NCBI GenBank assembly: GCA_004554705.1
Contig: SFKS01000009.1
Span: 5,458-69,457, forward strand
Direction of reading: 5' to 3'
Source: Clostridiales bacterium
GTDB lineage: Bacteria; Bacillota; Clostridia; TANB77; CAG-508
DNA: 64,000 bases
Part shown: positions 54,004 to 54,964 of the stretch, piece after piece
Layout of the letters: every line of letters starts with the position of its first letter
Numbering within the stretch: position 1 is the first letter of the stretch
The notes under the pieces: generated by a model
Seen by the model: the letters and a program-made list of their open reading frames with translations, nothing else
What the model was told of the DNA's origin: nothing
Database searches by the model: none
Made by a program: the position numbers and the translations under genes

Positions 54004-54058
54004 GTCAAAAATTGGGACAGTCCCAATTTTTGACATTTTTTGGGACTGTCCCAAAAAA
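54004..54058. repeat. REP-like palindromic doublet, left flank of the RAYT gene (GTCAAAAATTGGGACAGTCCCAATTTTTGAC + ATTTTTTGGGACTGTCCCAAAAAA)
   Basis: First unit is a perfect 31-nt palindrome. The second carries the inverted core GGGACTGTCCC. Confidence 0.8.
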
Positions 54059-54073
54059 GGACAAAGAAATCAT

Positions 54074-54102
54074 TGATTTTTTGGTATAAATTATGTATAA
54101 TG
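54074..54102 (+). promoter_or_regulatory. promoter TTGATT-17-TATAAT (extended -10 TGTATAAT) for the RAYT gene
   Basis: Near-consensus hexamers with a 17-nt spacer, 55 nt upstream of the ATG at 54157. Confidence 0.5.
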
Positions 54103-54156
54103 TTATGGGAGATGTAAAATTTTAGGGAGATAAATATTTAAATAAAGGAGTGTTTT

Positions 54157-54906
54157 ATGCCTAGAATTGCTAGAAAATGCCTAGAAACATCTTTCTTTCA
54201 TGTTATTGTGCAAGGAGTTAACAAGGATTTTATATTTTATAAGAATGAATATATTGAAGATTATATTTCTTTAATCAAAAAATATAAAGAAGAATTTGAT
54301 ATAGAAATTTTGGCTTATTGTATTATGAGTAATCATGCCCATTTATTGATTTTTACAGAAAAGATTGATATACTATCATCATTTATGCATTTAATAAATT
54401 CATTGTATGCGCAAAAATATAATAGAACAGAAAACAGAGTAGGGCATGTCTTTAGAAATAGATATTTAAGTGAACCAATATATTCAGAAAAATACTTGGT
54501 AAACTGTATAAATTACATTCATAGAAATCCTGTTAAAGCAGGGATTGTAAAAAATTGCAACGAGTACAAATATTCTACATATAATGATTATGCAAACTGC
54601 ACAGGCTTTGCAAATAGTAAAATATTAAATAAAATAATAGGAAAAGAAAACTATAAACAATTATTAAAAATAGAAGAAGATAATATGATTTTTTGGGATA
54701 TTGATATAACAAATGAGCAAATTATTGAACAAGTAATATGTAGATTCGAAAAGCAAGAGAACAAAAAATTAGAGGAAATTTTGCAAGAGAAAGAAATAGC
54801 AAGAAGAATGATAAATATGTTGAAATATGAATATGGAATAACATATAAAGAGATGCAAAAGAAATTTAATATAAGTGACAGAAAGATGGAAAAATTAAAA
54901 TATTAA
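54157..54906 (+). CDS. IS200/IS605-like HUH-Y1 transposase, REP-associated tyrosine transposase (RAYT)-like, with a C-terminal extension
   Basis: HUH motif (IMSNHAHLLI), catalytic Tyr region (INYIHRNPVKAGIV) and FHVIVQGVN N-terminus typical of Y1 transposases. Flanked on both sides by REP doublets. Confidence 0.75.
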   Translation: MPRIARKCLETSFFHVIVQGVNKDFIFYKNEYIEDYISLIKKYKEEFDIEILAYCIMSNHAHLLIFTEKIDILSSFMHLINSLYAQKYNRTENRVGHVFRNRYLSEPIYSEKYLVNCINYIHRNPVKAGIVKNCNEYKYSTYNDYANCTGFANSKILNKIIGKENYKQLLKIEEDNMIFWDIDITNEQIIEQVICRFEKQENKKLEEILQEKEIARRMINMLKYEYGITYKEMQKKFNISDRKMEKLKY

Positions 54907-54964
54907 GACATCCAATTTAGGGACAGTCCCAAAAAATGTCGGGAAATGGGACTGTCCCAGAAAA
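54907..54964. repeat. REP-like palindromic doublet, right flank of the RAYT gene (GACATCCAATTTAGGGACAGTCCCAAAAAATGTC + GGGAAATGGGACTGTCCCAGAAAA)
   Basis: GGGACAGTCCC and GGGACTGTCCC cores. GACA...TGTC outer arms. Confidence 0.8.

Follow-up and report, generated by a model that had tools for sequence, protein, structure and literature searches.

Palindromic doublets around a TIRYT-type Y1 HUH nuclease gene between polC and ychF: a probable REP/RAYT-type system

The window analysed here, a stretch of 64,000 nucleotides of DNA, contains a single Y1 open reading frame, which lies on the + strand at 54157..54906 and encodes a protein of 249 amino acids. Profile, sequence and fold matches assign it to the Y1 HUH nucleases of the TIRYT or RAYT-like type. 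The gene sits between polC and ychF, and the order polC-Y1-ychF-murT is identical in the 24 contigs that were read. Three palindromic doublets, to which no strand is assigned, accompany it. Two of them bracket the gene, at 54003..54063 and 54907..54968, and the third, which has no gene of its own, is found 38 kb away at 15784..15845. These positions agree with the first-pass annotation, which had placed doublets directly upstream and downstream of the Y1 gene and 38 kb off.

The doublets are built on the core GGGACWGTCCC, which has exactly six matches in the window, at positions 15795, 15823, 54014, 54042, 54920 and 54948. The expectation is 0, none was obtained in 100 dinucleotide-preserving shuffles, and a search allowing up to 2 mismatches found no further copy in the window. 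The six cores make three doublets in the same register: in each, the first core has A at its centre and the second, lying exactly 28 nt further on after a spacer of 17 nt, has T. The two forms are reverse complements of one another, so that every doublet is an inverted pair. The earlier claim that one core recurs as inverted doublets at three places is borne out by the six exact matches and their 28-nt phasing; the motif is highly non-random within the window, and its phasing is strict. An excess of lone GGGAC or GTCCC pentamers was also considered and rejected, since 25 occur outside the units against about 19 expected, as estimated from base composition.

The upstream doublet lies 25 nt past the polC stop and 94 nt ahead of the start of the Y1 reading frame. 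Its first unit (54003..54035) is a perfect 33-nt palindrome, TGTCAAAAATT-GGGACAGTCCC-AATTTTTGACA, and its second unit (54036..54058, with a GGACA tail that runs to 54063) reads T6-GGGACTGTCCC-A6. The whole doublet is identical in 8 other metagenome contigs. A promoter-like site of the Y1 gene (54073..54101, + strand; TTGATT, 17 nt, TATAAT), which is a consensus match only and agrees at 10/12 consensus positions, falls between this doublet and the reading frame. The downstream doublet, with cores at 54920 and 54948, comes directly after the stop of the reading frame, takes up most of the 75-nt gap to the likely ychF start at 54982 and is conserved in 8 contigs.

The solitary doublet at 15784..15845, with cores at 15795 and 15823, lies between gdpP and a DUF4912 gene, which are divergent, and shortly precedes a promoter-like site of gdpP (15854..15882, TTGACA-17-TAAAAT). 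It is present in 7/7 strain contigs and absent from the orthologous spacer of three sister species, whose GdpP proteins are 84-90% identical, and it is for this reason taken to be lineage-specific. The spacers of the sister species have diverged too far at this place to define an empty site, a target or insertion boundaries. No strain-level presence/absence polymorphism of the doublets was seen in the contigs compared (8 for the gene flanks, 7 for the 15785 doublet); their flanks are essentially identical and so carry no information on mobility. A fourth place, 18044..18070, had been described in the first-pass annotation as a decayed half-copy, and this is refuted. Its alignment score to a unit is 26 against 25 for the best shuffled sequence, and it has no fold as single-stranded DNA (z +0.4). 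The segment has orthologous counterparts in sister species, a conserved spoIIE promoter segment (...accaaatttgacaaaaaaa...) with no GGGAC at that place; judged from this orthology, the 18044 region is a conserved spoIIE promoter region.

As single-stranded DNA, the doublets at the three sites fold much better than shuffled sequences, with z from -5.1 to -8.6. The upstream doublet forms two hairpins (-23.2 kcal/mol, z -7.1), while the downstream doublet (-15.4 kcal/mol, z -5.1) and the 15785 doublet (-24.9 kcal/mol, z -8.6) each form one long REPIN-like hairpin. In REPINs, two inverted units with a short spacer together make a single long hairpin (Bertels & Rainey 2011, PMC3116915); the present doublets resemble them in this respect at 2/3 sites, the upstream doublet preferring two hairpins. 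The core had further been said to be embedded in longer palindromes with arms. Arms of the form TGTCAA.../...TTGACA are clear in both units at 15785 and in the first upstream unit, but they are degraded in the downstream doublet, to which the description does not extend.

The protein has the catalytic-type motifs of its class, in keeping with the original description of a Y1 transposase with HUH and Tyr motifs. The HUH motif is H60-A-H62 (codons 60-62, 54334..54342) and the tyrosine is Tyr120 (54514..54516), within YIHRNPV. Residues H60, H62 and Y120, together with a Y-S-S/T motif, are invariant in the 30 homologues aligned. The profile searches that had been suggested gave matches both to Pfam PF01797 (Y1_Tnp; E 8.7e-11, 42.4 bits against a cutoff of 23) and to the RAYT profile NCBIfam NF047646 (REP_Tyr_transpos equivalog), whose cutoff of 80 bits is only just reached at 80.5 bits. 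The IS200 equivalog NF033573 (transpos_IS200), by contrast, scores 18.4 bits, far below its cutoff of 55. The best sequence match in the PDB is 4er8, E. coli TnpA_REP (E 0.0017). The AF2 model, with a pLDDT of 83.7, has 4er8_A as its top Foldseek match (E 4e-6), and it also matches the folds of 2f4f and 2vjv. The YI-x-NPV tyrosine motif and a downstream F/Y-S-T motif align between the 249-aa protein and 4er8.

A C-terminal extension of about 100 residues (approximately amino acids 150-249, 54604..54903) follows the catalytic core. It comprises five helices in the model, with pLDDT around 90. The extension had been called unusual; its presence and its helix-rich character are supported, but it is conserved in every full-length homologue aligned. 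The TnpA-Y1 subclass 2.1 of Quentin et al. has an extra C-terminal domain related to the HTH families Bac_DnaA_C, HTH_23 and HTH_28 (PMC6006769), and because this subclass carries such an HTH-like tail, the extension is better regarded as a family trait. The likeness to HTH domains is weak here. Profile searches gave a sigma-70 ECF match at E 0.1, matches to HTH_24, HTH_3 and others in 1-3/30 homologues, and no match to Bac_DnaA_C in the C-terminal domain; Foldseek returned LsrR, DeoR and SinR, all with E of at least 4. From sequence and model, the 249-aa protein can be described as a putative Y1 HUH single-strand DNA nuclease/ligase of the TIRYT class, with a TnpA_REP-like catalytic core and a helical C-terminal domain.

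The E. coli TnpA_REP/REPtron (4er8; subclass 2.2; RAYT Group 2) is the characterized system whose protein is closest to this one by sequence and by fold. In both, a single-copy gene (here, single in the window) is flanked by inverted palindromic repeats that are also found elsewhere. The E. coli genome holds hundreds of REPs, whereas the copy number here looks low as judged from the 64-kb window, in which about 62 kb contain one gene-less doublet. TnpA_REP, of 165 aa, also lacks the C-terminal domain. At the foot of its hairpin, a canonical REP carries a 5' GT[AG]G tetranucleotide (PMC6006769, PMC3733652). In contrast, no GTAG, GTGG or complement of either was found in or beside any of the six units when these were read directly, and the conserved tag is GGGAC. 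The residues of TnpA_REP that read GTAG also differ in the alignment to 4er8, where F99-R100 of the 249-aa protein stand opposite W94-Q95; the family consensus at this position is G-x-V-F-R-N-R in the 30 homologues.

Orthologues of the Y1 gene were found in four species, with protein identities of about 80, 68, 62 and 61% (range 61-81%), and all are located directly upstream of ychF. Their neighbours are better conserved (YchF 87-92% and PolC about 85% identical). Every ychF-linked orthologue carries its own variant of the palindrome, and the repeats, which have diverged in situ, are now singles, doublets or an expanded hairpin; in one orthologue, both flanking doublets are 48-nt identical direct repeats. 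Going by these comparisons, the Y1 gene is domesticated and vertically inherited. It had been called a single-copy gene, and it is single within the window, with a locus that is unchanged in every contig read and in orthologues of as little as 61% identity.

The 11-mer core itself flanks only 1/80 metagenome homologues. Because it is nearly absent from relatives, flanks were compared de novo, and this exposed a shorter tag, GGGGAC. An inverted repeat of at least 11 nt links the two flanks of the gene in 50/64 distinct homologue loci, against 9.8% in a control with mismatched flanks, and in 44/64 loci the inverted flank repeats contain GGGAC/GTCCC. The tag is polar with respect to the gene: of the 64 loci, 53 have GGGAC upstream, read on the gene strand, and 49 have GTCCC downstream, the opposite orientation occurring in only 2 and 6, respectively. 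The base after GGGAC is always a purine in the family units and is followed mostly by G or C. Perfect arms of at least 6 bp surround the tag in 66% of 100 units, compared with 14% after shuffling. As the arms comprise 57 different sequences, the stem has been retained through sequence change. The family repeat can hence be described as a hairpin in which a species-specific stem encloses the conserved tag GGGGAC plus a purine. Most homologues have an asymmetric tag (GGGGACGGAG and the like) inside this variable stem; in the present species the tag is joined to its own complement, as GGGAC-W-GTCCC. Within the window, one unit spells it GGGGACAG and the remaining five T/AGGGACAG, and both orientations occur on each side.

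Repeats also occur away from the gene. Further copies of a locus's own 16-nt core are present more than 600 bp from the gene in 10/30 long loci, and in one lineage the density is 12-38 copies per 7-12.5 kb, reaching 38 in 12.5 kb, with copies in nearly every intergenic gap. No relevant Rfam family was found in the window at the gathering threshold or in four repeat-rich loci at an E-value threshold. The only matches, of microRNA models to a 115-nt hairpin in one repeat-rich locus (L080), were judged to be due to chance.

These features correspond closely to a class that already has a name. The TIRYT genes and their TIRtrons were described by Di Nocera, De Gregorio & Rocco in 2013 (PMC3733652) and are equated with TnpA-Y1 subclass 2.1 of Quentin et al. 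(2018, PMC6006769), the second largest subclass by the count of the latter. The flanking inverted repeats of TIRYT genes share GGGGWSAS, and some are self-complementary or occur in dimers or clusters (PMC3733652). As in that class, the protein studied here is RAYT-like, longer than the RAYTs and extended at its C-terminus, and its inverted flanking repeats carry a tag of the GGGGWSAS type; self-complementary, dimeric or clustered repeats in moderately abundant families are also known among the published TIRs. It differs in that the tag is fused to its own complement in strict 28-nt inverted doublets, and in its host, a spore-former of low GC content found in gut metagenomes; PMC3733652 nowhere contains the word 'Clostridi'. 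A further difference concerns subclass 2.1 as described by Quentin et al., who found no REP-like sequences near its genes (PMC6006769), whereas in 66% of the units examined here the tag is enclosed by a stem of 6 bp or more. TIRYT/subclass 2.1 probably corresponds to RAYT Group 1, the most widely distributed group, which has been reported in Clostridia and has modestly abundant flanking 16-mers, about 12 (PMC5581495). A full-text search found no literature with the exact cores in this sense. We consider it probable that the locus is a real REP/RAYT-type system, but of this already named, little-studied subclass. The initial REP/RAYT reading is in this way supported by the profiles and by the dispersed doublet, but the system is not of the E. 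coli/Pseudomonas type, since the GT[AG]G tag is missing.

The arrangement that we think likely to hold is a TIRtron-type REP/RAYT system, in which the Y1 HUH nuclease acts with its cognate flanking repeats. If it behaves like TnpA_REP and IS608 TnpA, the enzyme would bind a folded hairpin on DNA that is transiently single-stranded, for example at a replication fork; on such DNA a doublet can take the form of two hairpins or of a single long REPIN-like one. An HUH-bound metal and Tyr120 would then cut and rejoin the strand beside or within the tag. The cut itself is taken wholly from the analogy with these enzymes: no TIRYT or subclass 2.1 protein is known to be enzymatically active, and our literature search found no biochemical study of this branch. 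Cutting and rejoining might seed or maintain gene-less copies such as the 15785 doublet, while the gene itself would no longer move. It is also probable that the hairpins form structures at the transcript ends or in the 5' UTRs of polC, the Y1 gene and ychF.

Two other readings of the locus are unlikely. The protein might be mainly a DNA-binding regulator that dimerizes on a double-stranded GGGAC-N-GTCCC dyad through its helical C-terminal domain, with the repeats as operators, rather than mobile DNA, at the promoters of ychF, gdpP and the Y1 gene itself. The dyads, perfect over 11 bp, stand immediately upstream of the promoter-like sites of the Y1 gene and gdpP, and the weak HTH-like matches of the C-terminal domain would suit this role. 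However, the HUH and Tyr catalytic residues are invariant across the family, and an asymmetric tag in a variable stem, as found in most homologues, suits a hairpin substrate rather than a dyad operator. The strict polarity of the tag relative to the gene, the arrays of up to 38 copies in relatives and the retention of the gdpP promoter in sister species without the doublet also argue against operators.

It is similarly improbable that the system is an inert relic, whose repeats persist only as terminators or mRNA-stabilising hairpins and whose Y1 gene has an unrelated host function or none towards the repeats. Upstream unit 1, a strong hairpin followed by six T's just past the polC stop, one terminator-like unit at 15785, the low copy number in the window and the uniformity among strains are compatible with such a relic. 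Against it, a terminator scan of 53900..55050 found no terminators, and a terminator would have no use at 15785, where the doublet stands between divergent promoters. Moreover, the gene and the repeats co-vary, each orthologue having its own repeat variant, which would be unexpected if they were uncoupled.

An ordinary autonomous IS200/IS605-type element spanning 54003..54968, with the doublets as subterminal hairpins and the 15785 doublet as a remnant or miniature derivative, is very unlikely: the Y1_Tnp domain and HUH/Y1 fold are shared with TnpA of IS608 and ISDra2, which recognise subterminal hairpins on single-stranded DNA, the hairpins at both ends have the same A-then-T order and one orthologue has the direct-repeat doublets noted above, but the protein falls far below the IS200 profile cutoff, is matched best by TnpA_REP in both sequence and fold, and has 249 aa with a conserved extra domain against the 125-152 residues of the IS200-type chains matched by Foldseek, while the gene occurs once in the window, at the same site in every contig read, and stays beside ychF across species at only 61-80% protein identity with no sign of the unit moving, and the motif, instead of marking only the ends of several identical IS copies, accompanies one Y1 gene and recurs in a gene-less doublet.

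GGGACWGTCCC also occurs elsewhere in intergenic tandem and inverted arrays, at more than 120 loci among the matches listed. These loci span Planctomycetota, Actinomycetota, Bacillota, Bacteroidota, Pseudomonadota, Acidobacteriota, Omnitrophota, Patescibacteria and other phyla. A Y1 gene is right beside the array in 2 of the listed loci, and in a third the ends of the Y1 gene bear GGGAC inverted repeats of their own. We tentatively propose, with some doubt, that GGGGAC-tagged hairpins could constitute a third, pan-bacterial REP-like superfamily beside the GTAG- and CGTC-tagged ones, made and maintained by the HTH-bearing Y1 nucleases of subclass 2.1, for which the tag would be the recognition or cleavage site. 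If true, this would provide REP-like partners for a subclass now described as having none.

The biochemistry and population genetics of REP/RAYT systems in the literature cited here rest on E. coli and Pseudomonas. The present locus and its gut-metagenome relatives offer a compact test case, with a short enzyme, a perfect 33-nt putative substrate and a tag conserved across phyla, and the close relatives supply natural variants in the form of singles, doublets, expanded repeats and high-copy arrays. What the enzyme recognises and cuts, and the role of the extra domain, are directly testable with oligonucleotides. For annotation, genes of the TIRYT type should not be labelled IS200 transposases. 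The GGGAC-rich repeats also give rise to spurious small open reading frames.

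The 64-kb window contains exactly six copies of the palindrome GGGACWGTCCC (at 15795, 15823, 54014, 54042, 54920 and 54948), with no additional copy at up to two mismatches, and 100 dinucleotide-preserving shuffles of the window yielded no match. In all three doublets, a core with A at its centre comes first and a core with T at its centre lies exactly 28 nt downstream. Since the A and T forms are reverse complements of each other, every doublet is an inverted pair and presents the same pattern on both strands. The six cores and their 28-nt register confirm the inverted doublets that the first-pass annotation had placed around the Y1 transposase gene and at a distant, gene-less site; these span 54003..54063 (upstream of the gene), 54907..54968 (downstream) and 15784..15845 (the 15785 doublet). 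The first unit of the upstream doublet (54003..54035), TGTCAAAAATT-GGGACAGTCCC-AATTTTTGACA, is perfectly palindromic over 33 nt; its TGTCAA/TTGACA arms are retained by the units of the 15785 doublet and degraded in the downstream doublet. As single-stranded DNA, the doublets have predicted folds much more stable than those of shuffled sequences (z of -5.1 to -8.6). The upstream doublet is predicted to form two hairpins, and each of the others one long REPIN-like hairpin.

A segment at 18044, which had been described as a decayed half-copy of the palindrome, was rejected as a repeat. Its best alignment to a unit reaches a score of 26, and the top-scoring shuffled tile reaches 25; it has no fold (z +0.4); and sister species without GGGAC at this place conserve the segment (...accaaatttgacaaaaaaa...), which belongs to the -35 region of spoIIE. 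A hairpin at 13217..13241, AGGGACA-(11 nt)-TGTCCCT, is located just 3' of the GH57 gene on the minus strand (13262..14854), and a T-rich run follows it on that strand; it has a terminator-like look. Its GGGACA/TGTCCC stem is identical to the repeat tag, with a chance probability that we estimate at about 0.05. The longest ychF ORF begins at ATG 54946, within the second downstream repeat unit. Gene callers place the start at 54982 (MKIGIVGLPNVGKST) in all related contigs, so that the downstream doublet lies in the ychF 5' leader, outside the coding sequence. Finally, segment 39442..39609 is a tandem array with a 12-nt period, made of ten overlapping copies of CCAACACCAGAA/CCGGTT-like units with a stop codon at its end; it presumably encodes a C-terminal linker, rich in Pro, Thr and Glu, in a surface protein.

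The Y1 gene (54157..54906) encodes 249 amino acids and is preceded by a good promoter-like site, TTGATT-17-TATAAT (54073..54101), that follows the upstream doublet. The proposed REP/RAYT interpretation is supported by profile searches, in which the protein matches Pfam Y1_Tnp (E 8.7e-11) and the NCBIfam REP-associated tyrosine transposase (80.5 bits, cutoff 80), while the NCBIfam IS200 equivalog scores just 18.4 bits (cutoff 55). The closest solved structure by sequence is E. coli TnpA_REP (4er8), and this is also the top fold match of the AlphaFold model (pLDDT 83.7; 4er8_A, E 4e-6), followed by the IS200, IS608 and ISDra2 transposases. Residues H60, H62 and Y120 and the Y-S-S/T motif do not vary across 30 homologues (43-80% identity); judged by sequence, the Y1 catalytic core is intact and conserved. 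All 30 homologues retain the roughly 100-residue C-terminal extension, which is modelled as five confident helices, with a weak, non-significant similarity to helix-turn-helix domains.

The repeats beside the Y1 gene have been altered in place between species. Among the orthologues L209, L211, L212/L213 and L214 (80, 68, 61 and 62% identity), doublets flank the gene in L209 and L211, and those of L211 are direct copies, identical over 48 nt. L212 has an expanded hairpin upstream (GGGACAGGCCCC...GGGGCCTGTCCC) and one half only downstream, and L214 has single perfect 33-nt palindromes at the gene, with two further copies 0.6 and 4.7 kb away. Thus, gene and repeats co-vary across species. Second, distinct GGGGAC-tagged repeat families are found a few kb from the gene in L209 (10550..10710) and L212 (17660..17830 and 1970..2080), consisting of TGTCAAT-GGGGACGGGG-TATTTTGACA and of tandem TAGACTC-GGGGACGTCC units; these hint that a sister-species genome holds several such families and perhaps also several Y1 genes.

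A survey of 80 more distant Y1 homologues from metagenomes (35-50% identity) found the GGGACWGTCCC 11-mer in the flanks of just one. De novo comparison of flank against flank, at 64 distinct loci having both, detected an inverted repeat 11 nt or longer spanning the gene at 50 loci, against 9.8% in a mismatched-flank control, and 44 of these 50 repeats contain GGGAC/GTCCC. The tag is polar relative to the gene: on the gene strand, GGGAC is upstream at 53 and GTCCC downstream at 49 of the 64 loci, and the reverse orientation was seen at just 2 and 6, respectively. Each repeat copy consists of a species-specific stem around the conserved tag, as in CCTGTTTTT-GGGGACACTTTAA-AAAAACAGG and GATCCTTTTT-GGGACGCTCCA-AAAAAGGATC. 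In 66% of 100 distinct units, the tag is surrounded by perfect arms of 6 bp or more, against 14% after shuffling, and there are 57 different arm sequences; the stems are maintained despite sequence change. The position after GGGAC is a purine in every unit, and the next is mainly G or C. The window species is a special case in this family, with the tag fused to its own complement, which makes its units fully palindromic and gives either flank of the gene the tag in both orientations. Two other explanations, that the dyads are operators bound by a regulator or that the system is a relic whose repeats serve only as terminators, lose weight chiefly because the tag is asymmetric and polar across the family and because gene and repeats co-vary.

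The identical Y1 protein is encoded on 24 metagenome contigs, all with the order polC - Y1 - ychF - murT - gatD and with nearly invariant flanking doublets, and the window has no second Y1 ORF. In the orthologues, ychF-murT-gatD is directly downstream, and at one locus rpe replaces polC upstream. The neighbours, YchF (87-92% identical) and PolC (about 85%), are more conserved than the Y1 protein, so the gene keeps its place and evolves faster than its housekeeping neighbours. It behaves as described for domesticated RAYTs and unlike insertion sequences, and an autonomous insertion sequence is largely excluded.

Gene-less copies are dispersed in several lineages. Among 30 long homologue loci, 10 have their own 16-nt core again at distances above 600 bp from the Y1 gene. 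By far the densest proliferation among the loci examined is in human-gut metagenome contigs L154-L160 (e.g. L154 2796..11700), which carry 12-38 GGGACGGTCC units per 7-12.5 kb, in tandem arrays with a 26-35-nt period that occupy almost all intergenic gaps; their Y1 homologue is shorter (203 amino acids) and matches residues 1-178 of the query. The 15785 doublet lies in the spacer that separates the divergently oriented genes DUF4912 and gdpP, and all seven strain contigs examined carry it. In three sister species (GdpP 90, 89 and 84% identical), the orthologous spacer lacks it, although the flanking sequence and the gdpP promoter are retained; the doublet is therefore lineage-specific. Its insertion boundaries are not visible, the sister-species spacer being too diverged. 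In one strain (L216 330..1277, equivalent to window spacer 15686..15913), an insertion sequence encoding an rve-type transposase of 315 amino acids lies about 26 nt from this doublet, with about 25 nt of spacer apparently duplicated on both sides.

By analogy with TnpA_REP and IS608 TnpA, the Y1 enzyme would recognise the folded hairpin on single-stranded DNA, and Tyr120 would mediate cutting and rejoining beside or within the GGGGAC tag. Such reactions would make or maintain gene-less copies, the Y1 gene itself being immobile. A further contribution of the C-terminal domain may be targeting to DNA or the replisome.

RAYT-like genes with terminal inverted repeats (TIRs) were named TIRYT genes, residing in TIRtrons, by Di Nocera et al., who reported a shared GGGGWSAS motif and noted self-complementary TIRs, dimers, clusters and moderately abundant families (PMC3733652). 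Quentin et al. classified TIRYTs as TnpA-Y1 subclass 2.1, whose defining feature is an HTH-like domain at the C-terminus (Bac_DnaA_C, HTH_23, HTH_28), and did not find REP-like sequences near these genes (PMC6006769). According to Bertels et al., RAYT Group 1 is the most widespread, occurs in Clostridia, and has modestly abundant flanking 16-mers (PMC5581495). The window locus resembles TIRYT/subclass 2.1 in protein type, in having a C-terminal extension and in its tag, and probably belongs to this named, experimentally unexplored subclass. It differs from canonical GTAG-REP RAYTs: the foot of its hairpins lacks GT[AG]G, and the residues aligned with W94-Q95 of TnpA_REP are F99-R100. We found no mention of the GGGACAGTCCC palindrome in this sense in the papers searched. 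Our modest addition is evidence that hairpins with a conserved GGGGAC-purine tag do accompany subclass 2.1 genes, and that in some lineages these hairpins have proliferated into REP-like arrays.

When one genome per species was scanned for pairs of GGGACWGTCCC cores separated by 10-30 nt, at least 120 loci were found, where we estimate about 6 by chance, or up to about 20 if all genomes had 65% G+C. The matches listed include Planctomycetota, Actinomycetota, Bacillota, Bacteroidota, Pseudomonadota, Acidobacteriota, Omnitrophota, Patescibacteria, Nitrospirota and Kiritimatiellia, among others. In these matches, copies within a locus share their flanks, and the cores form direct arrays (AA 67, TT 51) or inverted pairs (AT 32, TA 13). 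At loci viewed individually, the repeats sit between ordinary genes. Just 3 of 120 8-kb loci among the matches listed have a Y1 ORF, a scarcity expected for dispersed repeats. An array adjoins a Y1 gene in L044 (Kiritimatiellae) and L049 (Planctomycetia), and in locus L009 GGGACACGCACCGAT and its inverse bracket one; we infer a genome-level link between such arrays and Y1 genes. An inverted GGGGACAGTCCCC pair in a Eubacteriales MAG (L080 6712..6838) forms the basis of a hairpin of some 115 nt, which matches plant and animal microRNA precursor models of Rfam with an E of 4e-17, yet under gathering scores, an example of such repeats producing false RNA-family matches. In L043, L073 and L110, GGGAC-W-GTCCC repeats within spurious small ORFs encode recurring GTVP, GDCP, GDSP and GLSP, and spurious ORFs from repeat-rich genomes likely contaminate protein databases.
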